DNA of 59,566 bases, counting the filler. It is 5 parts of 5 records of this genome, joined end to end, with 100 filler letters (N's around TTAATTAATTAA, not from the genome) between each part and the next. Parts side by side here need not be neighbours in the genome. Positions count along the whole stretch, not along the records: positions 12,588 to 25,171 come from SRR2962707_2619; 4 more parts are not named here. One strand, given 5' to 3'. A model generated the notes under the pieces. That model was not told the origin of the DNA. It saw only the letters and a program-made list of their open reading frames with translations, and searched no databases. Position 1 is the first letter of the stretch, and each line of letters begins with the position of its first letter. Of this stretch, positions 12,488-41,530 are shown in pieces. The position numbers and the translations under genes are program-made.

Positions 12488-12587
12488 NNNNNNNNNNNNN
12501 NNNNNNNNNNNNNNNNNNNNNNNNNNNNNNNTTAATTAATTAANNNNNNNNNNNNNNNNNNNNNNNNNNNNNNNNNNNNNNNNNNNN
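12488..12587. other. Artificial contig linker
   Basis: N44-TTAATTAATTAA-N44, stops in all six frames. Confidence 0.99.
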
Positions 12588-12611
12588 TCGCTTGCAGGCA
12601 AGCTCCCACAG
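12588..12611 (-). repeat. GTGG-family REP element at contig end
   Basis: Minus strand GTGG-GA-GCTTGC-CT-GCAAGC-GA: tetranucleotide plus palindrome, as in Pseudomonas-type REPs; position at a contig break fits a multicopy repeat. Confidence 0.65.
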
Positions 12612-12876
12612 TGGCTTTGTAGTTCCCTGAGAGAAGGCGGGTCTGTGTATTGGGGAAAGCGGGGAAGGAAAAGTGCCGCCGCCGTACCCCCCAGCGACCG
12701 GACGGAGCGCGAACCAGGGGAAGGGGAGTGGCGACGGCAAAGTCAGGCTACCGGTTTGCTGTTATATCGTCTTGATCTACATCAAATATCCGTGATTCAT
12801 TCTTGCCAGAGATGCTTGTCTCATTCGTATGGCCGCCTCTCCTAGTAAGAGGTAGAGGTCAGCATGACAAGGCGCC

Positions 12877-13485
12877 TTAATGTAGGTCGGCAAGCTTGGT
12901 ACTTGTCATGCCCAAGGAATGGGCTACATCATACATGGCCTGGTTAAGTATTTTGTGAGTGATTTTATCGGCCTCGAACCCCGCTTCTGCGTTGATGTCC
13001 GCCATGACTTGGTTATGGAGTTCGTGCGAAATGGCTTTGTCGAATAAATAGCCACTCCAGAACGTGCCATCCGCGGTGGTGCCGGCTTCCACCAGGGTTC
13101 TGGCTAGTTCTGTCCCGGATAGTTCGGCGGGCTCAGGAAGAGTAATACCGGCTTCTTGTGCGCGTTTGAGTGCGTAGATGATGGCCATGTCCATACCCTT
13201 GATGAAAGTATCTACCTGATCTTTCCCATATTGCTTGTTTAGTTTGGCGATCTCACTTTTGACGGTGTGCTTTCCAAGCATTGCCGTCAGGGCCTGTGCG
13301 AAGCTGAATTCATCGCTACCTCCACCGGCCTGGATCAGGGCCGCAGTGACATCCAAAGCGGGCTCACCCTGATAGGATGCACCGCCAAACATGTTCATAG
13401 GCGTGGAATGGGGTTGCTCAGCCAGCGTCGTCCCAATGGCGGTTGCCAGGAAAAGGGCCGTTACGGCCAGGTTCTTTGTTTTCAT
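12877..13485 (-). CDS. Secreted hypothetical protein co-oriented with ECF sigma
   Basis: GAGGA RBS, signal peptide MKTKNLAVTALFLATAIGTTLA, helical His/Met-containing body. Confidence 0.8.
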   Translation of the reverse strand: MKTKNLAVTALFLATAIGTTLAEQPHSTPMNMFGGASYQGEPALDVTAALIQAGGGSDEFSFAQALTAMLGKHTVKSEIAKLNKQYGKDQVDTFIKGMDMAIIYALKRAQEAGITLPEPAELSGTELARTLVEAGTTADGTFWSGYLFDKAISHELHNQVMADINAEAGFEADKITHKILNQAMYDVAHSLGMTSTKLADLH

Positions 13486-13529
13486 GAGTATTATCCTCGC
13501 TATGCTTTCGGGGGTGATGGTGTGCGCTG

Positions 13530-14249
13530 TTACGACTTGCCAGTCCGCTGTCTTCTTGCCAGCTCCTCCATAACCGCCGCGGTCATGACGTCGCAGCGTT
13601 TTCCGGCAAACTCGAAGATGTCCGGTTCCAGGACTTCCATTGTTCGTAATAAGCGCTGGCGGAGCATCTCACGGGCCCGGGAGAGACGTTTTTTAACCAG
13701 CACTTCGCTTATGTCGAGACAGAGGGCACTGTCGGCCGAGGAGAGCCCTTCCACCTCTCTAAGGAGGAAGACACAACGGTATATTTCCGGAAGGGCGCGA
13801 ATCGCTTCTTCCAGAAGCTGCCTTAGCTGTTGTCGACTTACCTCGGTTTCCGGGTTTGATACGTTGACCATGTGGGAGCCCATTGGGTCTCTCTCGTTCG
13901 ACTCGCCATGCAGGTGAGTGATTTCATGATTCAGGGACATTTCTGGCCGTTGGCGGCGTTTCGAGCTGATGGCCTGATTGATGACGATGCGGGTTAACCA
14001 AGTCTTGAGTGATGCCCGGCCCTGAAAGGAATCAAGATTTGTGAAGGCGTTAAGATAGGCCTCCTGCATTGCTTCTCGGGCTAGGTCCTCATCATTGAGA
14101 ACACCGATAGCGGCCCGAAAAAGGGGCTGATTGTGGCGTCGGATAATGAGTTCGAACGCGGCACTGTCGCCATGTCGAGCACGCTCCACCAGTCCGATGT
14201 CGCTTAGCTCAAACAAGCATTCATAAGGATTTGCCTCTGAAGAGGGCAT
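13530..14249 (-). CDS. ECF RNA polymerase sigma factor with C-terminal RCD extension
   Basis: Region 2 (AMQEAYL, SLKTWLTRIVIN), region 4 (LPEIYRCVFLLREVEGLS), tail FEFAGKRCD; start reassigned to ATG 14249. Confidence 0.9.
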   Translation of the reverse strand: MPSSEANPYECLFELSDIGLVERARHGDSAAFELIIRRHNQPLFRAAIGVLNDEDLAREAMQEAYLNAFTNLDSFQGRASLKTWLTRIVINQAISSKRRQRPEMSLNHEITHLHGESNERDPMGSHMVNVSNPETEVSRQQLRQLLEEAIRALPEIYRCVFLLREVEGLSSADSALCLDISEVLVKKRLSRAREMLRQRLLRTMEVLEPDIFEFAGKRCDVMTAAVMEELARRQRTGKS

Positions 14250-14295
14250 GCTGGATTTTCCTATGGAAGTAGGTGGTTTTTGGCGCTTATGTAAA

Positions 14296-14323
14296 TAGAC
14301 GCATCGCATGGAAAAAGGTGACA
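14296..14323 (-). promoter_or_regulatory. Putative autoregulatory ECF promoter
   Basis: Minus strand TGTCAC-N16-CGTCTA about 45 nt upstream of the sigma ATG. Confidence 0.45.
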
Positions 14324-14530
14324 ACGTTCCATCAGGAATGTTGGGTCCAGTCTTCACCATTGCTTTTATAGGCGCATCTCCGATTCCGAGAATGGTCTCC
14401 GGTTGAGAGTGTGCCGAAGTTGAATATGTAGGTGTGCTGATTAATCAATTGTCGGATGAGAAAGTTCGAACCAGCGCGCTCTATGGGGAGGTCGAGCTCT
14501 GAGAATGGCTACTGAATGATATGCCCTGGA

Positions 14531-14908
14531 TCAGGTGCTACCTGCGTTGAACTGGTTTATCAGCCAGGCGCGCAACGCCACGGCATTGTTGTGTTTGGTG
14601 TCCCGTGCCGAGTACAGAAGCGTCAGCGGTTGACCTGCGGCGGCATCAAGCAGGGCGTCGATCGGATCGGGGTTGGCGTCCAGCTCCTCATGATAACGAC
14701 GCTGGAATTCTTCCCAGCGCTGTGGGTCGTGCCCGAACCATTTGCGTAACGCAGTGGAGGGGGCCAGCTGTCGAAACCAGTTATTGGCGGCCACCTGTTC
14801 TTTCTTCATGCCCCGCGGCCAGGCGCGATCCACCAGTGCACGGTAGCCGTCGCTGTCGTCCCGGGCATCGTAGACACGTTTGCATTGAATCCGGGTGGGG
14901 CGCTGCAT
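14531..14908 (-). CDS. DUF488 (YeaO-like) protein
   Basis: KRVYD..DGYRALVDRAWPRGMKKE, APSTALRKWFGH, HNNAVAL. Confidence 0.9.
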   Translation of the reverse strand: MQRPTRIQCKRVYDARDDSDGYRALVDRAWPRGMKKEQVAANNWFRQLAPSTALRKWFGHDPQRWEEFQRRYHEELDANPDPIDALLDAAAGQPLTLLYSARDTKHNNAVALRAWLINQFNAGST

Positions 14909-14917
14909 ATTGAAACC

Positions 14918-15931
14918 TCATGGGTTGCCGGTTAACCGGGTCAGGGTTTCGGCGGCCTCTTCGATAATGCGGTTCAGGCGTTGCTCCGCCGTTAGGATTT
15001 GATGGAGCTGTCCGCAGGACTGACCGGCGTACAACGCCATGTCGTCCAGCTCTCCACGGGCATCGGCCAGCGGCGAGTCGGTGGAGAACAGATAAACCGG
15101 CTGGCCGTCCTGTTCTCCGATGATCTCGGAAATATTGGCCTGCCGCAAATCGTCGTATTCCCCTCGGGTTACGCGATTGCGCAATACTCGCACTGGGGCC
15201 GGCTCATGCCAGTTGCGGGTGAAATCACGGCAATGAACGGTATCGCCGGCGCCGGCCTGAATCAGCCGTTGTTGGTGGTGAGGGTGGGCGTTGGCTTCCT
15301 CGGTGGCAAGGAAGGCGCTGCCGATGCTAGCGCCCTGAGCCCCCAAAGCCAGAGCCGCTACCAGTGAGCGGCCATTGGCGATGCCGCCGGACGCCACCAC
15401 GGGAACCGGGCAGACAGGAACGAGTTCGGCCAGCAGGCTCAGGGTGCCGATATGACCGCGAACATGACCACCGGCCTCCCAGCCCTGGGCGATGATGATC
15501 TCGGCGCCGGCGTCGATGGCCAGTTCCGCGTCCCAGGTGCTGCCGACCTGATGGATGACACGAATGCCTTCGCTGACCAGGTGCCGCACCAGGGCGGTGT
15601 CCACGTCCCAGAAAAGCACCACGAACGGCACCTGAAGAGTCAGGCAGGTTCGCACTTGTTGATGGAGCTGGGCGTTCTCGGTGGCGGCGGGAATCAGATT
15701 GATCGCGAACGGCTTGTCGGTGAGCCGGCGTAACGCGTCAACTTCGGCGCTGATTCGTTCCACCGGCTCGCGCACCATGCCGAGCACGCCAAAGCCGCCG
15801 GCCCTGCACACCGCCGCTGCCAGCCGGTGGCGGGCAACGCCCCCCATTCCGGCCAGCAGGATGGGGAAGGCGCAGCCCAGGTGATCACAAAGCGGGGTGC
15901 GTAATGCCGGTGGCGGTGTTACCACTGCCAT
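14918..15931 (-). CDS. Nitronate monooxygenase family FMN oxidoreductase
   Basis: PILLAGMGG, QGWEAGGH, PVVASGGI, GSAFLATEEA, YAGQS motifs. Confidence 0.88.
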   Translation of the reverse strand: MAVVTPPPALRTPLCDHLGCAFPILLAGMGGVARHRLAAAVCRAGGFGVLGMVREPVERISAEVDALRRLTDKPFAINLIPAATENAQLHQQVRTCLTLQVPFVVLFWDVDTALVRHLVSEGIRVIHQVGSTWDAELAIDAGAEIIIAQGWEAGGHVRGHIGTLSLLAELVPVCPVPVVASGGIANGRSLVAALALGAQGASIGSAFLATEEANAHPHHQQRLIQAGAGDTVHCRDFTRNWHEPAPVRVLRNRVTRGEYDDLRQANISEIIGEQDGQPVYLFSTDSPLADARGELDDMALYAGQSCGQLHQILTAEQRLNRIIEEAAETLTRLTGNP

Positions 15932-16299
15932 ATCTGATCGACCCGTTCGTACAGATCCGCCAGTCCGGCCCGGCTTACCAGTTCAACTCCGGCTTGCAGA
16001 GGAAGGCCGGCGAGCCCGCGTTCTTCCAGATCCTCGCGCACCGCGTACACGGGCACGCCGCTTTCGGTGAGATTGGTGAGGTCGCGAACCAGTTCCGCCG
16101 GTTGGCTTTGTTTCCAGGTGCCCAGGACCAGGGGTGGTTGGCGCTGATTCAGCACCGCGTAATGCACGCCATGGCCACTGAGCAGCACCTGCAGATCGCC
16201 ACCCGCGCCGCGCATGGATTGGGTCAGCCAGAGAATGGTGTCGTCTTGTTCCTCCACCGTGGTGCGGAAGGCTTGATCGATAACCTGCAGTACTTTCAT
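15919..16299 (-). CDS. DsrF/DsrH (TusC/TusB)-like protein, no Cys
   Basis: VLLSGHGVHYA and VYAVREDLEERGL motifs; ends in W. Confidence 0.7.
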   Translation of the reverse strand: MKVLQVIDQAFRTTVEEQDDTILWLTQSMRGAGGDLQVLLSGHGVHYAVLNQRQPPLVLGTWKQSQPAELVRDLTNLTESGVPVYAVREDLEERGLAGLPLQAGVELVSRAGLADLYERVDQIWQW

Positions 16300-16304
16300 G
16301 GCGC

Positions 16305-16718
16305 TTACCTCGTGCCGATGGTCAGGGTGTTGAAGGCGTCACTGGCGTAGCGCCACAGGTCCGGCGGGCCGCCCCGGCCGCAACCGTCGATGACGTCATT
16401 GACGCCGCGCTCGTCCACGCACAGGCCGCAGTTGATCCATTCGAAGCTCAGGTCCTTGGCGGCGGCTTTTTCCTGCAGGGCGCGGATCCATTCCCGGGTC
16501 AGCGGATGATCTTCTTCCGCCGCGTCACGGCCGTGTACCGCGTTGCCATGAGGGGCTTGCCGGGCGAAGGCCAGGGCCACGGCACCCTCGTAAGCGAAGA
16601 CGCGCACCGAAGCGCCACGTTCCAGAGCCGCGTCGAGTAAGCGAAAGAAGGTGACGGTCCGCTCGCTTTCAAAAGGCGGATCCATGAAGGCGAAGGTCAG
16701 GGTTTTCAGGTCGCTCAT
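16305..16718 (-). CDS. DsrE/TusD-like sulfur-relay protein with CxxC
   Basis: DPPFESE, VRVFAYEGAV, NCGLCVDERG (Cys at the DsrE active-site position). Confidence 0.8.
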   Translation of the reverse strand: MSDLKTLTFAFMDPPFESERTVTFFRLLDAALERGASVRVFAYEGAVALAFARQAPHGNAVHGRDAAEEDHPLTREWIRALQEKAAAKDLSFEWINCGLCVDERGVNDVIDGCGRGGPPDLWRYASDAFNTLTIGTR

Positions 16719-16726
16719 GGGGACTC

Positions 16727-17053
16727 CTAGTTCCAGATCACTTTGCTGCCGGCCAGCAGGGCATCGACGGCGTCGCCGACGTCGCCCACGGTGACTTCGG
16801 CTTTCAAATCGGACGCTTCGATTTCCCGCTGCTTCAGTGAGAAGCCGTCGGCGCTGACAGTGACACCGCCGCCGAGCAGTGCGTCGAAGACCTCGCTGCG
16901 GGCGCCTAACCGGGCCGGCGCCACACCGTTTTGCACCAGCAGGACATGCACCCGGTGGCCAGCATCGCGGAGTTGCCTGGCCAATTGGTATTGCGCCGCG
17001 CAGCGGACCTCGGTAAACGGGTCCTGGCTTTGGATGAACAGATAGTCGGACAT
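16727..17053 (-). CDS. DsrE/DsrH-family small protein
   Basis: VHVLLVQNGV, ADGFSLKQREI, KVIWN. Confidence 0.7.
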   Translation of the reverse strand: MSDYLFIQSQDPFTEVRCAAQYQLARQLRDAGHRVHVLLVQNGVAPARLGARSEVFDALLGGGVTVSADGFSLKQREIEASDLKAEVTVGDVGDAVDALLAGSKVIWN

Positions 17054-17067
17054 GGACGTCTCCAGGA

Positions 17068-18768
17068 TCAGGAAGAAAGGGAAGTCAGCGGACGTTCTTC
17101 CAGCAGCTGCTTGCGCAGCAGGAAGTCACCGAAATGTTCGCCGTCACGGCGTTGGCCGGCATAGCGTTCGAGCATGGGCGCGAGCAACGCGAGGAAGCGT
17201 TCTTCGTCCACGTTGCCGGCGTACAGTTGCGCTAGCCGGTCGCCATGAAAGCTGCCGCCCAGATACAGGTTGTACAGTCCTGGCGCGCGGCCGGTGAGCG
17301 CGATCTCGGCCAGATAAGGCCGGGCGCAGCCGTTGGGGCAGCCGGTCAGACGCAGGGTGATGGGTTCCTCGCGCAGTCCGTATTGAGCCTTGAGCCGCTG
17401 GAAGCGCTCCAGAAACGTGGGTAAGTAACGTTCCGCCTCGGCCATGGCCAGGCCGCAGGTCGGCAGTGCCACGCAACTGAGGGTATGGGCGGCCTGCGCT
17501 TCAGGATCGAGGCGCCAATCCAGTCCCAGGTCTTCAAGGCGCCATTGCACCTGTTCCAGTTCGTGCGTCTCGATATGGGTCAACTGCAAGTTCTGGTTGG
17601 TGGTCAGCCGCAGGCGGCCGCCATACTGTTCCAGAAAGCCGCCCAGTTGGGTGCGCAGGGCATCGTCCACGCGGCCGCTTTCCACATAGAGCGTGGCGTG
17701 CCAGAGGCCATCGTCGCCCTGTTGCCAGCCAAGTCGGTCGCCGTTGTGGTCGAAGCGGACGCCGCGGGCCGGCTCCAGCGGGCGGCCACGATGGCATTCC
17801 AGCTCTTCCAGGAACCAGGGCAGGCCGAGACGATCCAGAGTGTATTTGAAACGGGCCCGGTGGCGATCCTGACGATCACCGAAGTCGCGCTGGATGCTCA
17901 TCACCAGTTCGGCGAAGGCGGGGGCCTCGTCCGCCTCGATAAAACCGATTTCCTCCGCCAGACGGGGATAGCTGTCCTCGCGGTTGTCCAATTGGCCCAT
18001 GCCGCCACCGACACAGACGTTGAAGCCGATCAGATCGCCGTTGTCCACCACCGCGATATAGCCCAGATCCTGGCCGTAGATGTCGACGTCGTTGACTGGC
18101 GGCAGCACGAAGCCGACCTTGAATTTGCGTGGCAGGTACAGCTCGCCATAGACCGGCTCCTCGCCGTCGCTCACCGGCGTCGGCTGTTGATGCCAGATGT
18201 CCGCATAGGCGCCGGTTTTCGGAATCAGACGGTCACTGGTGATCCGCGCCAGCTGCTGCACCCGCTCGTGAGCTTTGGACAAGTACGGATTGGCGCCGCA
18301 CACCACGCCGCGGCTGTCGTCGCCGCAGGCGGCGATGGTGTCCAGCCCTAACGGCTGCAGTCCTTGAATCAGCGAGCGTAGCTGCGATTTGCGCACACCA
18401 TGCAACTGAACGGTGCCCCGGGTAGTGATGCGCAGGCCCCGTTCGGCGTAGAGACGGGAAAGACGGTCCAGCCCCTGCCATTGGCGCTTGTCCAGCACAC
18501 CGCCGGGAATACGCAGGCGCACCATGAACTGGTAAGCCGGTTCCAGGCGGCGCTGGCGGCGATCGGCGCGGCGGTCACGGTCGTCCTGCTGATAGATGCC
18601 ATGGAACTTCATCAGCAGTGGGTCTTCCCCGGGCACCGCGCCGGTGAGCAGGTCGTCGAGCCCCTCGGCGATGGTGCCGCGCAGATGGCGGCTGCGGGCT
18701 TTCAGTTGTTCGTTCTCGTGCAGTCGTTCCACCGGCTGACTGAGATCGGGACGGGAATCGCTCATCAC
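17068..18768 (-). CDS. cysI: NADPH-dependent sulfite reductase hemoprotein subunit
   Basis: KFHGIYQQDDRD, YLPRKFK, siroheme/4Fe-4S ligands CVALPTC and GCPNGC. Confidence 0.92.
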   Translation of the reverse strand: MMSDSRPDLSQPVERLHENEQLKARSRHLRGTIAEGLDDLLTGAVPGEDPLLMKFHGIYQQDDRDRRADRRQRRLEPAYQFMVRLRIPGGVLDKRQWQGLDRLSRLYAERGLRITTRGTVQLHGVRKSQLRSLIQGLQPLGLDTIAACGDDSRGVVCGANPYLSKAHERVQQLARITSDRLIPKTGAYADIWHQQPTPVSDGEEPVYGELYLPRKFKVGFVLPPVNDVDIYGQDLGYIAVVDNGDLIGFNVCVGGGMGQLDNREDSYPRLAEEIGFIEADEAPAFAELVMSIQRDFGDRQDRHRARFKYTLDRLGLPWFLEELECHRGRPLEPARGVRFDHNGDRLGWQQGDDGLWHATLYVESGRVDDALRTQLGGFLEQYGGRLRLTTNQNLQLTHIETHELEQVQWRLEDLGLDWRLDPEAQAAHTLSCVALPTCGLAMAEAERYLPTFLERFQRLKAQYGLREEPITLRLTGCPNGCARPYLAEIALTGRAPGLYNLYLGGSFHGDRLAQLYAGNVDEERFLALLAPMLERYAGQRRDGEHFGDFLLRKQLLEERPLTSLSS

Positions 18769-18775
18769 GCTCTCC

Positions 18776-20526
18776 TCAATACAGGTTGCGGTGCAGGCGC
18801 TTTTCCCGGCCCAGTTGTTTCCAGGCGCCGTCTCCCTGGCGCTGGTCCAGGGCGGTTTTCAGTCCGCTCTCAAGGTCGCTCAATCGACCCTTGTCGCCGC
18901 ACAGGTAGAGGTGTGCGCCCCGGTCGATCCAGGTGCCCAGGCGATCGATCTGGTCGAGCAATGGGGTGATCAGGCCGGCGCCGGGCTGGTCTTGATAAAA
19001 CACGGTATCCACCCGTTCCAGCACACCGTCGGCGCGGGCCTGCTGAATATCCAGTTGATAAAGAAAGTCGTCCTCGAAGCGCTGTTCGGCGAACACCAGC
19101 CAGCAGGGCGGACGTTGGGATTGTTGCGACAAGGCTTGCAGGAAGGCGCGATAGGGGGCGATGCCGGTACCCTCGGCGATCAGGATCAGCGGCGCGTCGT
19201 CGTCCGGCAGCCGAAAGCGCGCATTGCGGTGCGGATACAGACGGACCGGGTCGCCGGGCTGTAGGTCCAACAGGTATCGGGAGGCGATGCCCTGCTCATG
19301 CCGCTCCCGGAAAGGATAGTGGAAGGCCTTGACGGTAAGATGCAGCTCGTCGTCCAGCACCGCCAGACTGTTGGCCACGTCGTACAGACGCGGCTGCAGT
19401 GGCCGCAGGGCTTCCACCAGGGCTTGTGCCGGCGGGCGCGCCGGATACTGGTGGAGCAGGTCGAGCAGTTGATGGTCTCGCAGAAACGCCCGCTGCCGAC
19501 GGCTCTCCGCCTGACACAGTTCGAGCAGGGCCGGAGCCTGGCTTTGCTCCGCCCAGAAAGCAAGAAAGCCGGTGCCGGCGATGGTCAGATCCCGCGTCTG
19601 ACGCAGCGCTTGCACCAGGGGCTGAGCGTCATCGTTCACGGTCACCGGTTGCTCGCCGGACAGCTCGCAGGCGTCCAGCACCGCCGCCACCAGCTCCGGC
19701 GGGTTGTCGGCCAGAATGCCGACGGCATCGCCGGGGAACAGGTCCGGAATCGCCTGATCCAGGGCCAGTTCCAGATGGTGTATTGGCTGGGCGCGATCCG
19801 CGGCGCTCAGATTCTGGTTGACCAGTACCTCCACCGTTAGTGGATGGTGTTTGTCGTAGCTGGGAGGGCTGGAGGTGGGTGCCCGGGCCGGACCCTGTGC
19901 AGTGCCCGTGGTGTTGGCTTTGGGCAGTTTTTCCAACAGGCGGGCGATCCAGTCCCGGGCCGGCTGTTCAAAATCCACGTCACAGTCCTGTGACCCTGCC
20001 GGGCGATCAGCCGTTCACCACCGAGGGCCTCCAGACGCTGGTCGAACTCCTGGCCGGTGACACAGAAGCGTTCGTAGCTGCTGTCGCCCAGGGCCAGTAC
20101 GGCGAATTTCAGGTTCGCCAGTTGCGGTGCACCGTCACCCATCAGGCCCTGATAAAAGTCCTGGATGGGTTCCGGCGGATCGCCGTCGCCATGGGTGGCG
20201 GTGATGATCACCAGATGATCGCGCCGCGCCAGTTGTCGGGGACGCAACCGGGCCAGGTCGATCACCTCCGTGGCGATGCCGGATTCACCGCAATGTTCGC
20301 TCAGAGCCTGCGCCAGGCGGCGGCAGTTGTCGGTTTCCGTGCCGTAACCGATCAGTACCGGATTGGGGGAGGCTTTGGTCGAGGCGGTGGTGGACGGCTC
20401 GGTGTCGCTGGCGGCGAGATAGCCGCTCAACCACCAGCGTTGCCGGGCATCCAGCGTCGCCAGCAACTGCCGGACCTGGTGCCATTGAGGGTCGGAAAAA
20501 GGGGGCGGTGTGGCTTGCGCCGTCAT
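18776..20526 (-). pseudogene. cysJ: Sulfite reductase flavoprotein subunit, frameshifted by an 8-nt insertion
   Basis: Flavodoxin half (YGTETDN, ATHGDGDPP, ALGDSSY) and FAD/NADPH half (PRLY, GTGIAPYRAF, DFLYQ, LYLCG) lie in different frames; deleting 19988-19995 restores RQDCDVDFE and a 580-aa ORF. Confidence 0.85.
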
Positions 20527-20647
20527 TTCCGGCTCCGTGTTTCAACGTGGGGCCGACAGTATGGGCGCGTGTTTTGAATACGAATAATGAAATAGAATAC
20601 GGTTTAACTTTAAAGAAATTGATATAAATCATGGGCAGGCTTTAATT

Positions 20648-21493
20648 ATGGACATCGATCTGGCCCGCACCTTTCTGGAGATCGTTCGCACTGGCAGTTT
20701 CATGGCCGCCGCCGAACGGTTGCACATCACCCAGACCACGGTGACCGCCCGCATTCATAACCTGGAAGGTCAACTGGGCTGCCGCCTGTTCGTGCGCAAC
20801 CGGGCCGGTGCGCGGTTGACCTCCCATGGTGAGCGGTTCACCACCCATGCTAGCCAACTGGTGCGTACCTGGGAGGCGGCGCGGCGCGAGTTGCCGTTGC
20901 CGGAAGGGGCCGAGGACATGTTGGTACTCGGTGGCGAGACCAGCCTGTGGAATCCGCTGTTGCTGAACTGGGTCACGCGGTTACGGGAACAGCATCCGAC
21001 CGTCGCCACCCGCGCCGAAGTGCATGACAGTGAAGCATTGCAGGAACGTTTGGAGAGAGGGGTGCTGGACGCCGCGCTGGTGCACCGGCCGGCGTACTGG
21101 CCGGGATTGCAGGTGGAACAACTGCTGGAAGAAAAATTGATCCTGGTGCGGGCGGTCCGCACCGGGGAGCCCTATGTCTATGTGGACTGGGGCGCGGATT
21201 TTCGCAAGCAACACGACGTCGCTTTGCCGGAGCGGGCGCGCTCGCCGGTGTCCGCCAATTTCGGACCGCTGGCGATTCAGTTTCTGTTGCAGCAGGGCGG
21301 CAGCGGTTATTTCCGTACCCGCGTGGCCGAGCCGCATCTGCGCGAAGGCACCTTGGAACGGGTTGCCGATGCACCGGAATTCACCTATCCGGTGTACCTG
21401 GCCTACGCCCGGGGGAAACACAGCCCGCTGCTGGACCAAGCCTTTCGGGTGTTGCGGACGGTGGCGGGGGAAAGCGCCGAGTGGTCAGCGTAA
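20648..21493 (+). CDS. LysR-family transcriptional regulator divergent from cysJ
   Basis: N-terminal HTH FLEIVRTGSFMAAAERLHITQTTVTARIHNLE. Confidence 0.95.
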   Translation: MDIDLARTFLEIVRTGSFMAAAERLHITQTTVTARIHNLEGQLGCRLFVRNRAGARLTSHGERFTTHASQLVRTWEAARRELPLPEGAEDMLVLGGETSLWNPLLLNWVTRLREQHPTVATRAEVHDSEALQERLERGVLDAALVHRPAYWPGLQVEQLLEEKLILVRAVRTGEPYVYVDWGADFRKQHDVALPERARSPVSANFGPLAIQFLLQQGGSGYFRTRVAEPHLREGTLERVADAPEFTYPVYLAYARGKHSPLLDQAFRVLRTVAGESAEWSA

Positions 21494-22117
21494 CCGCAAC
21501 GGATCCACCAGCCCCGCCGCCACCGCCATGCCGACCAGATCGGGCAGGCGTTCGGCGCCCATGCGCTTCATTACCCGTGAGCGATACAGATCCACGGTTT
21601 TGACGCTGACATTTAACTGCGCGGCGATCTCCCGATTGGTATAGCCCTTGACCAGTGGCAGCAGCACATCCCGTTCCCGCGGGGTGAGCGTGTCCAGCTT
21701 ATCATCCACCTGCTGACGGCCGGTTTCTTGCTGATATTCTTTTCGCTCACTGTTGAGTGCCTGTTGCACGCTGTCGAGCAGTAACTGCTCGTTATAAGGC
21801 TTTTCGATGAAATCCACCGCACCGGCCTTGAACGCCCGCACCACGATGGGAACGTCGGCGTGGCCGCTGACGAAGATGATCGGATAATCCAGGCCGCGTT
21901 CCTTCATCGCTTGCTGGACGTGCAGGCCACCCAGAGTCGGCATGCGCACATCCAGTAGCACACAGGCGTTTTCCCCTGTCGCGCAAGCGTCGAGAAAGTC
22001 ACCGCCGTTGGTGAACGGGCGGGCATCAAGGCCAACCGATTCCAGCAGCCAGGCGGTGGATTCCAGCATGCCGGGGTCGTCGTCCACCACATAGACGATT
22101 TGTGCGCCGGTGGTCAT
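21485..22117 (-). CDS. FixJ/LuxR-type response regulator (BfiR-like)
   Basis: VVDDD, LLDVRMP, FIEKP, LTPRERDVL HTH. Confidence 0.93.
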   Translation of the reverse strand: MTTGAQIVYVVDDDPGMLESTAWLLESVGLDARPFTNGGDFLDACATGENACVLLDVRMPTLGGLHVQQAMKERGLDYPIIFVSGHADVPIVVRAFKAGAVDFIEKPYNEQLLLDSVQQALNSERKEYQQETGRQQVDDKLDTLTPRERDVLLPLVKGYTNREIAAQLNVSVKTVDLYRSRVMKRMGAERLPDLVGMAVAAGLVDPLRLR

Positions 22118-24444
22118 GGGGTCTCCTCGTTATGGGCCAGCGGCAGCCGGCAGTACATTTCCAGTCCTTGCTCGCACGAGCGGGCATTCAGCTCACCGCC
22201 GAGCCCCTCGATGACCGAGCGGCTCATCGACAATCCCAGGCCAAGGCCGTCGGGTTTACTGGTATAGAACGGTGTGAACATATGCTTGAGCGTCTCCGGG
22301 TCGGCACCGGGGCCTTGATCGAGGACTCGGATCACCAGGAAATTGTCCGGCGCGCGCTGGGTGGCGACGGTGATTTCGGAGGGGTGCTCCCGCCAGCGTT
22401 CGCGGTTGGCGTCGAGCGCGTTACGCAGCAAATTCACCAGCACCTGTTCCAGCAGGATACGGTCGGCGTACAGTGGTGGCAGGTCCTTGGCAAACTGCCT
22501 GGCGATGGTAATACGATGACTCTCCGCTTCCCAGGCGCAAAGGTGAATGGCCTGACTCGCCACCGTGTTGATATCGAGCGCCTCCAGGCGGCGCTGGCCT
22601 TTGCGCAGAAAGGCGCGCAGCCGCCGGATCACCTCCGAGGCATGGTGGGCGTGTTCGCTGATCCGGCCCAGCCCCTGGGCGACCTTGTCAATTTTGGGCG
22701 CCAGATCGGAAGCCGTATCCAGTTTCGCCGGATCACCGTGGTGGGGCGGTTCAAGTGCGCGCAGATGGCGCAGGCTGGCGGCGGCGTAATTGCTGATTGC
22801 CGCCAGCGGCTGGTTGATTTCATGGGCGATGCCGGAGGCCAGTTCGCCCATGGCGATCAGCCGGCTGCTTTGCGCCAGTTCATTCTGGTGGCGGCGCTGT
22901 TGCGCTTCGCGCAAAGCCCTTTCGGTCATGTCCCGGGCGACCAGGGAATAGTACTGGTCGTTGCCGGCGCCGCGGTGGGCCAGCAGTACCAGGGACACCG
23001 GAAAGAATTCGCCGGAGTCGCCGGCGCGCAGTTGCGCCTCGCTGGTCCACACCCCTTGTTCCCGAGCGCTGTTCCAGCCATGTTCGCGTAGCCGCCGGAT
23101 ATCCTCGGCGGCGAACAATTCGGCCAGATCCGGCAACGGATCCGGGCCGATGGCGAGAGCCTCGCGGGCGGCGCGGTTGGCGTAGGTGAGGCGCTCGTCG
23201 AGCCCGACGAACAGCACCAGGTCGGTATTCGCTTCCACGACTTCGGCCAGACGGCGGCGATTCTCTTCCGCCCGGACCCGGGCGGTGATGTCGCGTGTGA
23301 CACTGACCACTTCCACCACCGCGCCGGTATAGGTTTCACGGATGGCGTGGCTGGCGGTCTCGAACCACAGATAGTGGCCGCGCCGATGACGGATCTGATA
23401 GGTCATGGTGTGATAACCCAGTTCCTCCAGCGCCGCCTTGGCCTGTTGTTGTAACCGTTCGCGGTCCTGCTCATGAAACAGCGCCTGCACCGCCGTGCCG
23501 CGCAATTGTTCCGGCCAATAGCCCAACAAACCCCAGGAGGCTGGTGAGGCGTCAAGGAACACGCCGTCGGGCGTGTGCCGCGAGATCAAATCGGTGGTGT
23601 TCTCGGTGATCAGACGGTACAAGCGCCGGGCACGGTTGCCGGCCTTTTCGTTTCGCAACTGATCGGTAGCGTCACGGCCACGGGCCAGGATCCGCTGGCC
23701 GGGCGGGTCGGGGATAAAGTTCCACAACAGGATGCGATCGCCGAGCCGCGCCTCCACGTCGACGATGGCGCGGCCCTGGGACAGACAAGCGGCGGCCAGG
23801 GCCTGGTGGTTGATTGGCAAGCAGCTGTCGGCGTCGATGCGGTGCTCGCCGAGCAATTGTTGCAGTGCGTGGTTGGTATCGACGGGACGGCCCCGGGTAT
23901 CGAGCACCGCCGCCGGTTGAGGGTCGTTGCTGAGCAGTGCAAAAGCCCCTTCCCGGTGAGTCAATGGACAGGCCAGTTGATTGAGCATGGCGGCCAGCCA
24001 GGGCAGCCACTGGCTGCCGCACTGCGGTGACAACTCCAGCAACAACAGGCCTTGGCTGTGGTCGTCCAGCGCCAGTGGCAGGATCGCGCCATGGTGCAGG
24101 GCGGCGCGACGGACCCGGCCGGCGAGCCAGCAGGGCAGAGCGCGTAATTCACTCAGCGATAGCACCGTCTCACCTGCCAGACGCTGGTGCAAGGTGTGAT
24201 CCGAAGCCTGAAACGGGTCGCCGGGGCCCGGCGGCAGGCCGGCCTGGCCGTCGGCGTGATCGTAGACGCCGGCGTCCTCCTGCCAGAACAGGTAGAAGGC
24301 GCGCCGCACTTCCGGGGTGCTGGCCATCATCCGGCATAAACCGGCGGCCCGTTGAGAACGGGGCATACGGTCCTGCTGCAATCGCAGCCAATCGCGCATC
24401 AACAGGGGAAAGGCGTCGTCCTGGTCCATTATGGGCTCATTCAA
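22114..24444 (-). CDS. Cytoplasmic multi-PAS histidine kinase (BfiS-like)
   Basis: PAS repeats, H-box GIAHEINQPL, N-box NLLRNALDA, G-boxes DQGPG and GLGLGL; no obvious TM helix. Confidence 0.92.
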   Translation of the reverse strand: MNEPIMDQDDAFPLLMRDWLRLQQDRMPRSQRAAGLCRMMASTPEVRRAFYLFWQEDAGVYDHADGQAGLPPGPGDPFQASDHTLHQRLAGETVLSLSELRALPCWLAGRVRRAALHHGAILPLALDDHSQGLLLLELSPQCGSQWLPWLAAMLNQLACPLTHREGAFALLSNDPQPAAVLDTRGRPVDTNHALQQLLGEHRIDADSCLPINHQALAAACLSQGRAIVDVEARLGDRILLWNFIPDPPGQRILARGRDATDQLRNEKAGNRARRLYRLITENTTDLISRHTPDGVFLDASPASWGLLGYWPEQLRGTAVQALFHEQDRERLQQQAKAALEELGYHTMTYQIRHRRGHYLWFETASHAIRETYTGAVVEVVSVTRDITARVRAEENRRRLAEVVEANTDLVLFVGLDERLTYANRAAREALAIGPDPLPDLAELFAAEDIRRLREHGWNSAREQGVWTSEAQLRAGDSGEFFPVSLVLLAHRGAGNDQYYSLVARDMTERALREAQQRRHQNELAQSSRLIAMGELASGIAHEINQPLAAISNYAAASLRHLRALEPPHHGDPAKLDTASDLAPKIDKVAQGLGRISEHAHHASEVIRRLRAFLRKGQRRLEALDINTVASQAIHLCAWEAESHRITIARQFAKDLPPLYADRILLEQVLVNLLRNALDANRERWREHPSEITVATQRAPDNFLVIRVLDQGPGADPETLKHMFTPFYTSKPDGLGLGLSMSRSVIEGLGGELNARSCEQGLEMYCRLPLAHNEETP

Positions 24445-24583
24445 GAGATATGGTAAATATACTATAAGACTCTAGTTTTATTTCCATATTTGTTCTTTAT
24501 GGTCTATAAATGCGCCCTGGGTTGCGGGCTAATGCTGGTAACTCTACCCGAAGAATACCGCGAACAACTACGGGACGGTCATT

Positions 24584-25171
24584 ATGTCCATTTATGAGCA
24601 GGGCCTTTCGCCCACCGAAGTCAATCATGTTCCCCTGACCCCGCTGAGCTTTATTGAGCGTACCGCGGCGGTTTACCCCGACTATCCGTCAGTGATTCAC
24701 GGTGATATCCGGCGCACCTGGCGGGAAACCTACCGGCGCTGCCGGCGGCTTGCTTCAGCCCTGGCGGGTCGTGGTATCGGCAAGGGCGATACCGTGGCCG
24801 CGATGTTGCCGAACATCCCGGCAATGCTGGAAGCCCATTTCGGCGTGCCGATGATCGGCGCCGTTCTCAATACGCTCAATGTCCGTCTGGACGCCGACGC
24901 CATCGCCTACATGCTGCGTCATGGTGAGGCCAAGGTTCTGATCGTGGATCGCGAATTCCACCAGGTGATCGGTGACGCCGTGGCCAAACTGGAGACGCCG
25001 CCACTGCTGATTGATGTGGATGATCCCGAATACGGTGAAGGTGAACCGGTCAGCGAGCTGGATTACGAGGCTTTCCTTGCCGAGGGTGATCCGGAGTTCC
25101 AGTGGCAATGGCCGGACAACGAGTGGAATGCGATTTCTCTCAACTACACCTCCGGCACCACCGGCGATCCC
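24584..25171 (+). CDS. Acyl-CoA synthetase, DmdB/PA4198-like (5' part, truncated)
   Basis: NHVPLTPLSFIERTAAVYP N-terminus, LNYTSGTTG AMP-binding motif. Confidence 0.85.
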
Positions 25172-25271
25172 NNNNNNNNNNNNNNNNNNNNNNNNNNNNN
25201 NNNNNNNNNNNNNNNTTAATTAATTAANNNNNNNNNNNNNNNNNNNNNNNNNNNNNNNNNNNNNNNNNNNN
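25172..25271. other. Artificial contig linker
   Basis: N44-TTAATTAATTAA-N44. Confidence 0.99.
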
Positions 25272-25345
25272 GGCGCGGTGGCGGAGTGGCTACGCAGCGG
25301 CCTGCAAAGCCGTGAACACCGGTTCGATTCCGGTCCGCGCCTCCA
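25272..25345 (+). tRNA. tRNA-Cys(GCA)
   Basis: GGCGCGG/CCGCGCC acceptor stem, GCGGC-CTGCAAA-GCCGT anticodon arm, GGTTCGATTCC T-arm, U discriminator and CCA. Confidence 0.96.
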
Positions 25346-25352
25346 GCTCTGA

Positions 25353-25428
25353 TCCGGCTTAGCTCAGTTGGTAGAGCACCTGACTGTTAATCAGGTTGTC
25401 GCAGGTTCGAGCCCTGCAGCCGGAGCCA
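25353..25428 (+). tRNA. tRNA-Asn(GTT)
   Basis: TCCGGCT/AGCCGGA stem, CCTGA-CTGTTAA-TCAGG anticodon arm, GGTTCGAGCC, GCCA end. Confidence 0.96.
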
Positions 25429-36606: not shown

Positions 36607-36706
36607 NNNNNNNNNNNNNNNNNNNNNNNNNNNNNNNNNNNNNNNNNNNNTTAATTAATTAANNNNNNNNNNNNNNNNNNNNNNNNNNNNNNNNNNNNNN
36701 NNNNNN
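36607..36706. other. Artificial contig linker
   Basis: N44-TTAATTAATTAA-N44. Confidence 0.99.
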
Positions 36707-36730
36707 GTTCGAGTCCGCCTACTGGTACCA
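36707..36730 (+). tRNA. 3' end of a tRNA (probably Leu), cut by contig start
   Basis: GTTCGAGTCC T-loop and GGTACCA end; anticodon not visible. Confidence 0.7.
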
Positions 36731-36737
36731 ACATAAG

Positions 36738-36771
36738 AAAGCTCCGTAGCAAATGCTTCGGGGCTTTTTTT
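36738..36771 (+). terminator. Intrinsic terminator after tRNA
   Basis: AAAGCTCCG..CGGGGCTTTTTTT. Confidence 0.8.
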
Positions 36772-36778
36772 ATGCCTG

Positions 36779-37216
36779 TTATTTATTCTCTTCAGACAAA
36801 TGCTCTAGCACGTAATCAGGCAAGTCCGCTTCATCAGGAATCGGTGTAGACAGGCCTTCTTCGTCGATCGCGACAAATTTAAAATTACCTTCTGTTACTT
36901 TTTCTCGCTGCCCAATACGACCTCGTCTCACCCATGCTTCAACACGAATATTCATAGAAGTACGGCCAACGGAATCCACATGCGTATAAATGCCTAGGAT
37001 ATCGCCCACTTTCACAGGGCGAATAAAGCTCATACCATCAAGCGCCACGGTCACCACTCTTGATTGCGCTCTTTGCCCCGCACAAATACCAGCGGCTATG
37101 TCCATTTGAGAGACGACCCAGCCACCAAAAATATCACCCGCTGGGTTCGTGTCACTCGGCATAGCGACTGTACGAGTTGTTAAGCGTCCCTTTACTTTTT
37201 CTTCAGTTGCCGACAT
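36779..37216 (-). CDS. yciA: Acyl-CoA thioesterase (YciA family)
   Basis: MPSDTNPAGDIFGGWVVSQMD. Confidence 0.88.
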   Translation of the reverse strand: MSATEEKVKGRLTTRTVAMPSDTNPAGDIFGGWVVSQMDIAAGICAGQRAQSRVVTVALDGMSFIRPVKVGDILGIYTHVDSVGRTSMNIRVEAWVRRGRIGQREKVTEGNFKFVAIDEEGLSTPIPDEADLPDYVLEHLSEENK

Positions 37217-37394
37217 ACAGCACCCCTTTAAAATAGATATAACAGATAAAAAAATGCCGTGCTTTCTTGCCCGCTTCTATTGGCTTGCTGATTAACCGCC
37301 ATTTTTAGCCTTGACTTGAAATACACAGCATATATAAAAATTATGAACACAAGGAGTCATGGAACCATGATCCAGTCCTCCGCGCGCCACACCG

Positions 37395-37652
37395 CTAAGA
37401 AAATTCGACTCGTAAATAATTGATTAACTTCTGAGGTGAACGAACATCTTGCAGAAACGATAACTTAAGATACGCTTCAATAGCATGAATATTCGAGTCC
37501 GTTAGCCACTCTCTTTCGTCGTAGAACGCTTGGATTAACGCCAATATTTCAAAGCCATTCTCTTTATCAATGTCTTCGTTCGCATTTTTTGGCTCAACAG
37601 GGTCCCACTGGTAGGTCCCTTTTAAATCACTGCGCTTAACTTGATAAACCAT
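37395..37652 (-). CDS. Small hypothetical protein (85 aa)
   Basis: GGGAG RBS, ATG start, plausible composition. Confidence 0.6.
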   Translation of the reverse strand: MVYQVKRSDLKGTYQWDPVEPKNANEDIDKENGFEILALIQAFYDEREWLTDSNIHAIEAYLKLSFLQDVRSPQKLINYLRVEFS

Positions 37653-38076
37653 TTATACCACTCCCTTTCCCAGGATCTTCCCCTAAGACTAGCCGTTATT
37701 TAAACGCTTACTCAGGGGATTCATTTATACAGGGAAAGACTATTAGAATTGGACAAAAAACTGTCATCTATAGGTGAAAATCAACCTAATGAACTCGTTA
37801 GTAAACTGAACACTACAGAATAGTAGAAAACACAAAGAAAGGAATAAGCCACACTCATCGTCACAAAACAGCAAGATCAATAAAAACTAATTCATTAATA
37901 TCAGTGAGTTACTGAAGGCTCCCCTTCTCGTTAAGCAGTTTGAAAACATGATATAGAGTTACACCAAAACAGCCAAGATAAAGCCGCAAATCATTACATA
38001 AAAAGCGCGACGACAGCACTTGGCGACGTCGCGTTGGGGATCATATCGGCATCAACGCCATGGGGGTCCGTAACAC

Positions 38077-38550
38077 TTACAACCCCATCTCACTTAATTC
38101 AGGGTGATCGAGCGGACGAGCGCCTAATGGCCAATGAAATTTTCGCTCACTTTCAGAAATAGGCAGGTCATTAATGCTGGCATGGCGCTCCTGCATGAGT
38201 CCCTGCTCATTAAACTGCCAATTTTCATTACCATAAGAGCGGAACCAATTGCCTTCATCGTCATGCCATTCATAGGCAAAGCGCACACTAATACGGTTGT
38301 TATCATAGGCCCACAACTCTTTTACCAAGCGGTAATCATGCTCTTTCTGCCACTTGCTTGTAAGCAGTTCTTGGATCTGCGCGCGACCTACAGGAAATAC
38401 ATCACGATTGCGCCAACGGCTATCTAGGGTATACGCCATAGACACCTTGACTGGGTCTTTTGTATTCCAAGCGTCTTCTGCCATACGTACTTTTTGCTTT
38501 GCTGTTTCTTCTGTAAAAGGCGGAAACGGAGCCTTAGCTTCTTCACTCAT
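38077..38550 (-). CDS. DUF1348 / SnoaL-like (NTF2) protein
   Basis: [38 protein letters not shown]; start reassigned to ATG 38550. Confidence 0.92.
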
Positions 38551-38566
38551 TGGTTCACTCCTAGAT

Positions 38567-38611
38567 AGTAGAACGACTTGTCTACATAGAGAATAGACAA
38601 GTCGTTCTACT
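38567..38611. promoter_or_regulatory. Double TetR-type operator (perfect 18-bp inverted repeat)
   Basis: AGTAGAACGACTTGTCTA-N9-TAGACAAGTCGTTCTACT; each arm is TAGA-N8-TCTA. Confidence 0.7.
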
Positions 38612-38691
38612 TTTGCAATGCGCAATTCCCCCCTTAAGCCCAAGCTCTCGCCTTATAGAGGCACAAAGAGAGAAACCATCAGCGCTACAGC

Positions 38692-39624
38692 CTAATACCC
38701 TCTCACTAGATCAATTTGGTTGTTCAATTCACCCTTGCTGACAAAGCTCAATACGTTGTCGGCGACTTGTTCGATGATGGTGGGTAGTGAAGCATCAGAA
38801 GCTAAATGCGGGGTGATTGTGACGCCTTTAGTGGTCCATAATGGGTCTGTGGCGGGTAAGGGTTCTTGGTTGAATACGTCCAATAAGGCGCCTCGTAGAT
38901 GACCGGCATCGATTGACTCGATTAAGTCTTCTTGGATCAAATGACCACCACGCCCTACGTTGATGATGTAACCACCCTCTGGCATTTTATTAAATAAGTC
39001 TTTGTTCAATATGCCTTTTGTCGCTGGGCTTAGTGGCAATAAGTTTACCAGTAGCTCAGTTTCTTTTAGCATTTCACCTAACCCTTCTGGACCATGGTAG
39101 CAGTGGATGCCGTTCAGAGTTTTAGGGCTACGTGACCAACCAGAAACACGATAGCCAAATTGCGCTAATCCGCGTGCGACAAACTGCCCTAGCTCTCCTA
39201 ATCCTAAGACACTGACGCGAATGTCGGACGCGGGACGCTGACGAAAGCCCTGCCATTTTGACTCGCTTTGGTTCGCGCTTATCTTGTCAAAGTTCCGCTG
39301 TACCGTGAGTGCGCCCCACAATACGTATTCCAGCATGCCTTGCTTTTGATGGTCATCCACCACTCGACAAACAGGCAAACCTGAGGTTAATAACCTTGCA
39401 CCCAAGTGGTCGACACCTGCCGCGACAGAATGCAGGCATTTTAAATTTGGGTAGCGGTTTAATAAGTCTGCTTCTGGGTGCCAGCAAAGGGCCATTTGCG
39501 CCTGCTCTGCACCGGCATCGCCAGCTACTAACACATTGATTTCTGGACGACGTTCTAAAAAAGCCGCTTTCAACCTAGCGGTGTATTTCTCATTGTTGGT
39601 TATTAATAAAAGGTCATTGCTCAT
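38692..39624 (-). CDS. ghrA: Glyoxylate/hydroxypyruvate reductase A-like 2-hydroxyacid dehydrogenase
   Basis: AGVDH, GLGELG, GWSRS, INVGRG, LDVF..EP, TPHLAS. Confidence 0.85.
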   Translation of the reverse strand: MSNDLLLITNNEKYTARLKAAFLERRPEINVLVAGDAGAEQAQMALCWHPEADLLNRYPNLKCLHSVAAGVDHLGARLLTSGLPVCRVVDDHQKQGMLEYVLWGALTVQRNFDKISANQSESKWQGFRQRPASDIRVSVLGLGELGQFVARGLAQFGYRVSGWSRSPKTLNGIHCYHGPEGLGEMLKETELLVNLLPLSPATKGILNKDLFNKMPEGGYIINVGRGGHLIQEDLIESIDAGHLRGALLDVFNQEPLPATDPLWTTKGVTITPHLASDASLPTIIEQVADNVLSFVSKGELNNQIDLVRGY

Positions 39625-39918
39625 AACGAATCTCGTACTGTGGATAGGCTGACTGTAATTTTCAGCCATCAGCCTGCCATATGAGCGAATACTTTTACAA
39701 ACCCTCTCCTATCGAAAGTGAAAAATACCTTATTCATCGACACTTTTTGAGCATTTAACAATGTTCCCAACTATTCACCCGCAGCGGGATGCATTACACT
39801 CTTCGCTAAGTATTAACAACGCCTTAAAGAGCTGTAAAATCCTGTTATAAACCTCAGGAAAGGCGAAAAAGCCCTCTAATCTCGACGATTCAAGACATAC
39901 CGTAAAGGACCCCATGCT

Positions 39919-40854: not shown

Positions 40855-40938
40855 TCAAGATGCCATGTTTAGTAGCGCTGCTTATCAGCGCTGCTTACTC
40901 GCGCTATTTATCAATGCTAACAAGCAACACAACGTCCT

Positions 40939-41370: not shown

Positions 41371-41397
41371 CTTGTTTCTCTCAGTTTAAAAAGAAAA

Positions 41398-41468
41398 CTG
41401 ACAATATGTCAGATTTGTCTGTCTATTTGCTAAAAATATCTTCAAATAGTATTAACTTCTGACATATT
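41398..41468. promoter_or_regulatory. Palindromic operator candidates between lrp-like gene and ctlX
   Basis: CTGACA-ata-TGTCAG at 41398-41412; inverted copy TCTGACATATT at 41458-41468. Confidence 0.5.
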
Positions 41469-41530
41469 AAACAACATCAAGTCATCCTATTATGGCCTCT
41501 CTTCTTTTCTCTGTGCCAGAGGGCCTGTAC

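Follow-up and report, generated by a model that had tools for sequence, protein, structure and literature searches.

The locus and its conserved gene order

The 59,566-nt stretch of DNA analysed here (the window) carries, at 14531-21493, a gene cluster in which the two genes of an NADPH sulfite reductase, cysJ and cysI, are followed by three small genes for DsrE/DsrF/DsrH-like proteins, which we call E1, E2 and H and, together, the trio. Genes were identified with Pfam and NCBIfam models, which returned DUF488, NMO (nitronate monooxygenase), weak DsrH, DsrE, DsrE, CysI and CysJ domains and LysR. On the minus strand the order from upstream to downstream is cysJ, cysI, E1, E2, H, a gene for an NMO-family flavoprotein and a DUF488 gene, and the spacings, taken from the DUF488 end towards cysJ, are 9 nt, a 13-nt overlap, 5, 8, 14 and 7 nt. 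A lysR gene lies divergent from cysJ with 121 nt between the two (Table 1). The initial annotation had described a seven-gene minus-strand operon divergent from lysR; its open reading frames (ORFs) and spacings were borne out, but cysJ proved to be split by an 8-bp insertion. No promoter-like sites were seen inside the cluster in a simple scan, and terminator-like sites were at chance level in a scan of the same kind (5 seen against 5.2 expected). Contigs of RNA runs cover parts of the operon; contigs alone cannot show transcription or its level.

Table 1. Positions of the operon genes, the control region and further features, counted along the window
Feature	Position	Strand	Remarks
lysR	20648-21493	+	HTH_1 and LysR_substrate domains; divergent from cysJ
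lysR-cysJ intergenic control region	20527-20647	-	holds motif TTCATTAT-N20-CATACT in the minus-strand reading
cysJ, 5' piece	19837-20526	-	flavodoxin (FMN) domain, then out-of-frame tail; Flavodoxin_1 5e-25; TIGR01931 positions 4-180
8-bp insertion in the FMN/FAD hinge of cysJ	~19987-19994		not in L001, L002, L003
cysJ, 3' piece, from GTG codon	18776-19978	-	FAD_binding_1 and NAD_binding_1; TIGR01931 positions 185-566
cysI, NADPH sulfite reductase hemoprotein	17068-18768	-	NF010029 673.9 bits, cut-off 457
E1, 108-aa DsrE/DsrF-like protein	16727-17053	-	Pfam DsrE 31.1 bits, cut-off 22.7
E2, 137-aa DsrE-like protein	16305-16718	-	C97-G-L-C100 motif; Pfam DsrE above cut-off; model like YchN, DsrE
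H, 126-aa DsrH/TusB-like protein	15919-16299	-	without cysteine; Pfam DsrH (PF04077) 21.7 bits, below cut-off 24.4
NMO/FabK/PA1024-superfamily FMN-dependent oxidoreductase, accessory	14918-15931	-	PF03060 169 bits, cut-off 28
DUF488 protein, accessory	14531-14908	-	'inactive N3' subclade; PF22752 6e-42
Operon-bearing contig	12588-25171		12,584 bp, 61.6% GC; Alloalcanivorax-like; linker at each end
Contig linkers	12488-12587, 25172-25271, 36607-36706, 53738-53837		100 nt each, N...TTAATTAATTAA...N

The cluster was compared across genomes in an E2 scan that took one genome per species and gave 54 loci; the denominators that follow are loci with enough flank. E1 adjoined E2 in 53/54 loci and H in 54/54, cysI stood by E2 in 45/49, and cysJ and a divergent lysR did so in 41/44 each. 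An NMO ortholog came directly after H in 18 of 46 loci, any NMO lay within 3.5 kb in 23 of the 46 (five of these being a 34-37% identical paralog in Methylophaga), and DUF488 was present in 15/42. The synteny across genomes on which the initial annotation depended thus extends to lysR, cysJI and the trio, but not to NMO and DUF488. These results show that the conserved unit is lysR <> cysJ-cysI-E1-E2-H, six genes kept together across classes, and the conservation of their linkage is far beyond chance. The NMO-like gene and DUF488 are best taken as lineage-specific additions outside this unit, and the flanks past the unit and these two genes vary between loci.

Hosts of the module were found in the Gammaproteobacteria (Alcanivoracaceae, Spongiibacteraceae, Porticoccaceae, Cellvibrionaceae, Halieaceae, Methylophaga, Solimonas and a metagenome-assembled genome (MAG) of Moraxellaceae), in the Betaproteobacteria (Methylophilaceae) and in the Alphaproteobacteria (Tepidicaulis). 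The distribution is patchy: E2 was present in 7/401 genomes sampled from the order, and its profile matched none of 401 genomes sampled from the phylum, a result that speaks for rarity within that sample only. The E2 family is compact: of 1.84 billion cluster representatives, 259 matched at E<=0.001 and 20 at E<=1e-30, many of them fragments. E2 also has the highest mean column identity of the operon (81%), followed by CysI (71%), H (66%) and E1 (62%). CysI of the Methylophilaceae is nested inside gammaproteobacterial branches of the tree, which points to a spread of the module by lateral transfer. In nine Methylobacillus/Methylophaga loci (L041, L021, L026, L028, L029, L042, L043, L045, L048) a COX1-family gene was observed after the trio; in L041 (10807-15085) it is flanked by a semialdehyde dehydrogenase gene and then by FixO-like and cytochrome c genes, a set that suggests a cbb3-type oxidase-like system.

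The sulfite reductase, the trio and their control region

CysI scored above the cut-off of NF010029 (Table 1) and below that of the stricter model TIGR02041 (653.5 bits against 756.55). It aligns with residues 13-558 of the Escherichia coli sulfite reductase hemoprotein (SiRHP) at E 1.7e-152 and about 50% identity. The cluster cysteines C432, C438, C477 and C481 and the anion-site residues R153, K215 and K217 do not vary across 45 sequences and are the same as in E. coli SiRHP. By these sequence hallmarks the operon CysI is shown to be a genuine siroheme/[4Fe-4S] sulfite reductase. The operon encodes the same two-subunit enzyme as CysJI of E. coli/Salmonella, with the same three domains in CysJ and the CysI residues kept. 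It differs from cysJIH of these bacteria in that the enzyme is not the housekeeping one, the operon holds no cysH, and a divergent lysR and three small genes are added.

A second sulfite reductase had been suggested in the initial annotation, and the genomes agree. Another two-domain NIR_SIR frame of 551-591 aa lies elsewhere in 10/10 operon-bearing genomes tested; the same genomes also have NirB-size frames, and no DsrAB-size NIR_SIR frame was found among the ten. The non-operon CysI-like gene is followed by DUF934 in 6/6 genomes checked, and PAPS_reduct genes (cysH/cysD type) occur elsewhere in the genome in 5/5, in one of them beside the housekeeping cysI-DUF934. The DUF934 family is reported to be co-fit with sulfate assimilation genes (10.1101/072470). 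These results show that the operon CysJI comes in addition to the housekeeping CysI-DUF934, as a second enzyme.

NADPH-type CysI without the trio was found in 31/300 genomes sampled from the class, at 35-52% identity, a tally that takes in one genome flagged unpublished. Twenty of these 31 loci were examined, of which 19 had cysJ-cysI and 0 had the trio. In the CysI tree (a quick IQ-TREE search, 63 of 65 rows after duplicate removal), trio-linked and trio-less sequences were split by one branch with an SH-aLRT of 99. The loop by the anion-binding Arg (CysI 148-154; window 18307-18327) reads CGDD[SN]RG in 45/45 trio-linked sequences, in contrast to the CGD[VI]NRN found in 20/20 trio-less ones, and further clade-specific positions are 261, 263, 266, 303, 494 and 498. 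Because one CysI group is a single clade, the loop difference may be simple inheritance. C148 was considered as a residue special to trio-linked enzymes and was ruled out, being present in 18/20 trio-less CysI.

E1, E2 and H stand in tandem as three paralogs with the DsrE/F/H fold. In Foldseek, the AlphaFold model of H (pLDDT 90) matched YchN, DsrE/F/H and TusB/C/D with TM 0.6-0.83, and that of E2 (pLDDT 75, residues 45-70 weak) matched YchN at 6e-6 and DsrE at 4e-4. For E1 and H, hhalign gives a 93% probability of homology, with E2 standing apart from both. E2 and H are thus shown by predicted fold to belong to the DsrE/DsrF/DsrH (YchN) superfamily, and E1 is placed there because it matches Pfam DsrE and is akin to H at the profile level. 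Against solved structures, the E2 profile returned nothing relevant, and the E1 and H profiles gave marginal DsrE/YchN/DsrH/TusB matches only (A4 profile against DsrH, 0.0016). The models of E2 and H both resemble YchN, a homo-oligomer of unknown function, more than any other structure. Fused forms of E2 were limited to four longer proteins and were uninformative.

Within the trio, conserved cysteines occur in E2 only. C97 and C100 are kept in 54/54 sequences and C113 in 89%, and the model places C97/C100 at a strand end and helix start. H57, N59, H62, E69 and H71 are likewise invariant and lie in an inserted, poorly modelled loop. Judging from motif position, the CGLC of E2 would sit at the position equivalent to Cys78 of DsrE/TusD. 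Cys18 of E1 is kept in only 6% of sequences, and H lacks a counterpart of Cys20, the conserved cysteine of DsrH.

The operon resembles the DsrEFH/DsrC/DsrAB system (PDB 2HY5) in having three tandem DsrE-fold paralogs by a siroheme sulfite reductase and in carrying the cysteine of the trio in the DsrE-like subunit. However, its reductase is the assimilatory CysJI and not DsrAB, DsrC was not found in 4/5 genomes, H has no cysteine, the cysteine subunit is second in gene order, and sequence similarity is marginal. TusBCD-TusE (PDB 2D1P) likewise comprises a gene trio of heterotrimer type with this fold, and H resembles TusB, TusC and TusD, but H stays below the cut-off of the TusB/DsrH model TIGR03011 (26.3 bits against 49.2) and TusE was not found in 4/5 genomes. 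Canonical DsrH/TusB was found in 1/5 genomes, the same one that has DsrC/TusE. The initial annotation had noted that canonical Tus/Dsr partners are missing from the contig; in 4/5 operon-bearing genomes neither TusE/DsrC nor TusB/DsrH was found. With H devoid of cysteine and no TusE/DsrC acceptor found in 4/5 genomes, the classical DsrEFH-DsrC/TusBCD-TusE relay is excluded, and the trio is not the Tus system, because one genome has a canonical tusB/tusE pair plus the trio. The E2 CGLC fits the CGXC 'redox motif' of YedF (PMC5322559), but YedF carries a fused TusA-like domain and is selenium-linked; the accessible text describes no cysJI link for YchN or YedF. In agreement with the initial annotation, no characterized operon of this make-up was found in the openly accessible full text that was searched.

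The motif TTCATTAT-N20-CATA[AC]T was found in 36/41 lysR-cysJ spacers, with a gap of almost always exactly 20 nt, and is preceded upstream by an AT-rich segment, often with ATATCAA...TTGATAT-like half-sites. This pattern fits one conserved LysR-dependent promoter and dedicated LysR control of the operon. The best NCBIfam match of LysR is HdfR (126.5 bits, below the cut-off of 240), a 'selenium-associated LysR' model matched weakly (94.7 bits, cut-off 250), and CysB and CysL models were absent among the 25 best matches listed. YeiE of enterobacteria and CysL of Bacillus are sulfite-sensing LysR proteins that activate cysJI (PMC8931317, PMC5322559). The B. subtilis cysL-cysJI and enterobacterial YeiE-cysJI systems are like the operon in that a LysR protein is dedicated to cysJI, and in B. 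subtilis the arrangement is the regulator plus cysJI only, as the same papers describe. In contrast to these systems, the operon LysR is no YeiE member, and DsrE-like genes are not described for CysL or YeiE in the passages covered.

The NMO-like protein passes PF03060, and its best relatives of solved structure are TM0800 and the FabK enoyl-ACP reductases (2e-41), then PA1024. Proven nitronate monooxygenases matched at 1e-22 to 1e-24, so nitronate-oxidising enzymes are not its nearest relatives; it is not a FabK either (TIGR03151 181 bits, below the cut-off of 453). The DUF488 protein has no relative of solved structure that could be found by sequence.

The split cysJ and its host contig

The 8-bp insertion shifts the reading frame of cysJ and leaves a flavodoxin ORF and an FAD/NADPH ORF. 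The flavodoxin, FAD-binding and NADPH-binding domains are all present, in two frames and not in one chain; three Alloalcanivorax relatives (L001-L003), without the insertion, encode an intact CysJ of about 580 aa in one chain. The insertion completes a palindrome, GTCACAG-GA-CTGTGAC on the minus strand, which is a perfect 7-bp inverted repeat with a 2-nt loop (19979-19994) and the pattern that would be expected from a template-switch (quasi-palindrome) mutation. An identical ungapped insertion allele was present in contigs of the DNA runs X1, X5 and X8 from three studies; X1 and X5 are possibly the source of the present DNA, and the contig of the third run is 645 nt long and from a marine metagenome. 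Because the allele is identical in contigs of three DNA runs, the break is probably real. Since cysJ is broken at the inter-domain hinge, the module in the present DNA is probably impaired, or relies on two separately made CysJ halves.

We give about even chances to the operon being a decaying remnant in the present strain, with CysJ inactivated by the insertion and CysI therefore without electrons. The intact CysJ of the relatives, the position of the frame shift at the FMN/FAD hinge, and an allele common to three runs, hence no one-off assembly error, argue for decay. However, the present DNA may itself derive from two of the three runs, and every other gene is intact at 98-100% identity to relatives. 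Both CysJ halves are also still open, the second starting at a GTG 7 nt past an AGGA, and a split enzyme is conceivable.

The window joins five contigs with GC contents of 55.8, 61.6, 55.6, 45.5 and 57.8% in order, the second of which bears the operon. This contig is 97.5% identical to Alloalcanivorax xenomutans JC109 over 12.6 kb. The operon is a recombination mosaic: most of 14600-20600 is 97-100% identical to JC109, whereas the block 18776-20200 is ~100% identical to A. balearicus and only 79-88% to JC109, and further short blocks of the operon switch in the opposite direction. Other genes on the contig encode a 202-aa secreted protein of no known kind, an ECF sigma factor, a FixJ/LuxR-type response regulator, a PAS histidine kinase and the start of an AMP-binding enzyme. 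An ECF sigma factor gene was seen near the operon in five loci from different families (window 12877-14360; L023, L035, L036, L038), accompanied in L001 and L023 by a gene for the 202-aa secreted protein. At the start of the contig (12588-12622) lies a 35-nt element that looks like a REP-type repeat. It recurs dozens of times in two Alloalcanivorax genomes, where the copies often face each other in pairs some 60 nt apart.

The third contig opens with genes for tRNA-Cys (GCA) and tRNA-Asn (GTT) at 25272-25428. A genomic island, for which the GC step and these tRNA genes had been taken as signs, was ruled out, the steps being contig joins; a plasmid search gave no meaningful match. The fourth contig (36707-53737, 45% GC) is 97% identical to genome G001 of another genus over the 6.3 kb compared (36707-43000). 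The operon was not found in G001, which has only this contig in common with the window; the match is confined to an unrelated contig and is therefore uninformative on the host of the operon. The assembly probably mixes organisms, with contig 4 matching a genome of another genus and contig 2 being Alloalcanivorax. The reported absence of cysH, cysDN and cysG nearby accordingly holds for the 12,584-bp contig 12588-25171 but not for the window at large, because the window is five joined contigs.

Possible roles of the trio in sulfite reduction

Persulfide carriage is a known role of the DsrE/YchN-type fold. We favour, with a confidence that stops a little short of even, the reading that the operon encodes an accessory NADPH sulfite reductase under a LysR switch and that a DsrEFH-like carrier complex handles the sulfur of this enzyme. 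The trio would assemble as a TusBCD/DsrEFH-like complex and handle sulfur that passes through CysI. Reduced sulfur would most likely leave CysI as persulfide (S0) on the E2 cysteines, with CGLC as the only reactive site of the carrier, and would go on to thiol acceptors or cysteine synthesis. In this way the cell could dispose of sulfite, whether external or set free by organosulfur breakdown, without releasing free sulfide. LysR might switch the operon on with sulfite or a related signal, by analogy with CysL and YeiE for cysJI elsewhere. Beyond the observed linkage, fold, cysteines and paralogy, we infer a contact of the trio with CysI and carriage of sulfur by the trio. Handling of the product is favoured because CysI keeps the site for free sulfite, because the fold is one that carries persulfides, and because S0 has been reported as a product. 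According to that report, one 2026 study, the primary product that assimilatory sulfite reductases release is S0 and not H2S (PMC13188885). The persulfide relay of the initial annotation thus keeps the DsrE-type fold and one conserved CxxC as its support, and nothing else. A complex prediction of CysI with E1, E2 and H scored 0.00 and was run without controls, and counts neither for nor against binding.

Several results weigh against this reading. The S0-product claim comes from one recent paper (PMC13188885). The trio occurs without cysJI in 4/49 close loci (L049, L050, L051, L053), of which two among L049/L050/L051 are Myxococcales MAGs and L053 is from Steroidobacteraceae, and it is likewise without cysJI in the distant metagenome locus L076 (E2 27% identical), in 0.5 kb of upstream flank and 5.5 kb downstream. 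It is therefore an autonomous unit, although most members of the compact E2 family are linked to cysJI. In the cysJI-less Myxococcales/Steroidobacteraceae loci, the picked ORFs neighbouring the trio had no Pfam match except an aspartate kinase and a TPR regulator. H has no cysteine at all, with no Cys column conserved in a 45-sequence alignment, and the DsrC/TusE family PF04358 was found in one of five operon-bearing genomes and not in the other four. The invariant H57/H62/H71/E69 of E2 and its two cysteines would suit a metal site equally well. LysR is far from YeiE (NF040889 50 bits, cut-off 480) and has NtcB and HdfR as its nearest solved relatives, and cysJ is broken in the present DNA. 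As a separate observation, L076 carries a fourth DsrE/DrsE_2-like gene downstream of its trio (2257-2670).

A further possibility, which we regard as unlikely, is that CysJI-E1E2H forms a new assimilatory class with a protein co-substrate, as DsrAB has in DsrC. The E2 CGLC pair would attack the siroheme-bound sulfur intermediate and deliver a protein-bound persulfide/trisulfide in place of free sulfide, and the CGDD[SN]RG loop would be an adaptation to E2.

DsrE3A/TusA proteins bind thiosulfonate, and the trio could likewise be a carrier on the substrate side, the E2 CxxC disulfide capturing sulfite (as S-sulfonate) or thiosulfate/tetrathionate (as thiosulfonate) and presenting it to CysI in a thiosulfate/sulfite salvage. 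The linkage and cysteine data are the same as for a carrier of the product, and the altered CysI loop by the anion-binding Arg could mean a changed, bulkier substrate. However, CysI has retained the four anion-binding residues and the complete SiRHP architecture of the enzyme that acts on free sulfite, and the conserved unit comes without a transporter, rhodanese or TusA gene; we consider substrate capture improbable.

The metal-site residues raise another explanation, that the trio is a metal- or cofactor-binding helper of the CysI paralog, acting in siroheme/Fe-S delivery, repair or electron transfer through the His/Cys/Glu cluster of E2. Besides the invariance of H57, H62, H71, E69, C97 and C100, the lack of conserved cysteines in H and E1 and the names 'iron-sulfur binding' or 'FeS-binding' given to E2 in some database records are in its favour. 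But those names are unverified annotations, the fold and cysteine position match the sulfur carriers DsrE/TusD/YchN, and the trio exists also away from any cysI, which leaves a helper role with little probability.

It is very unlikely that the module serves to reduce or detoxify an oxyanion other than sulfite, such as selenite, tellurite, nitrite or hydroxylamine, with the trio binding the reduced chalcogen. The relation of LysR to NtcB, which is nitrite-related, and its 'selenium-associated LysR' match are weak similarities, mainly in the DNA-binding domain, and CysI scores 674 bits as a sulfite reductase against at most 153 bits for nitrite reductase models. The same idea would draw on the cbb3-type oxidase-like genes and distant NMO after the trio in methylotroph loci, and on the CGXC DsrE-like domain in the selenium-linked YedF (PMC5322559).

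Hardly credible is a role of the NMO-like flavoprotein in freeing or detoxifying sulfur from an unusual organic substrate, with CysJI and the relay processing the released sulfite/persulfide: its gene overlaps or abuts the H gene in the Alcanivorax/Spongiibacteraceae/Halieaceae branch, but the adjacent ortholog and DUF488 are missing from most loci, its closest solved relatives (FabK, TM0800, PA1024) are not proven nitronate monooxygenases, and the neighbourhood holds no conserved transporter or gene for the handling of sulfonates or thiols. The sulfur-liberating flavin oxygenase of the initial annotation is therefore without basis, and nothing in the data points to methanethiol, thiocyanate or polysulfide as the source.

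Sulfite reduction by CysJI has long been regarded as a solved, self-contained step. If the trio were merely a co-regulated neighbour, the finding would shrink to an ordinary second LysR-controlled cysJI operon. A CysJI conserved with the trio offers a natural test of whether sulfur is handed over to a carrier or released as S0, the product reported in PMC13188885. The module also bears on the handling of sulfite by aerobic marine and methylotrophic bacteria, and a carrier role of the trio would give a first function to a compact and very strongly conserved branch of the DsrE/YchN superfamily.

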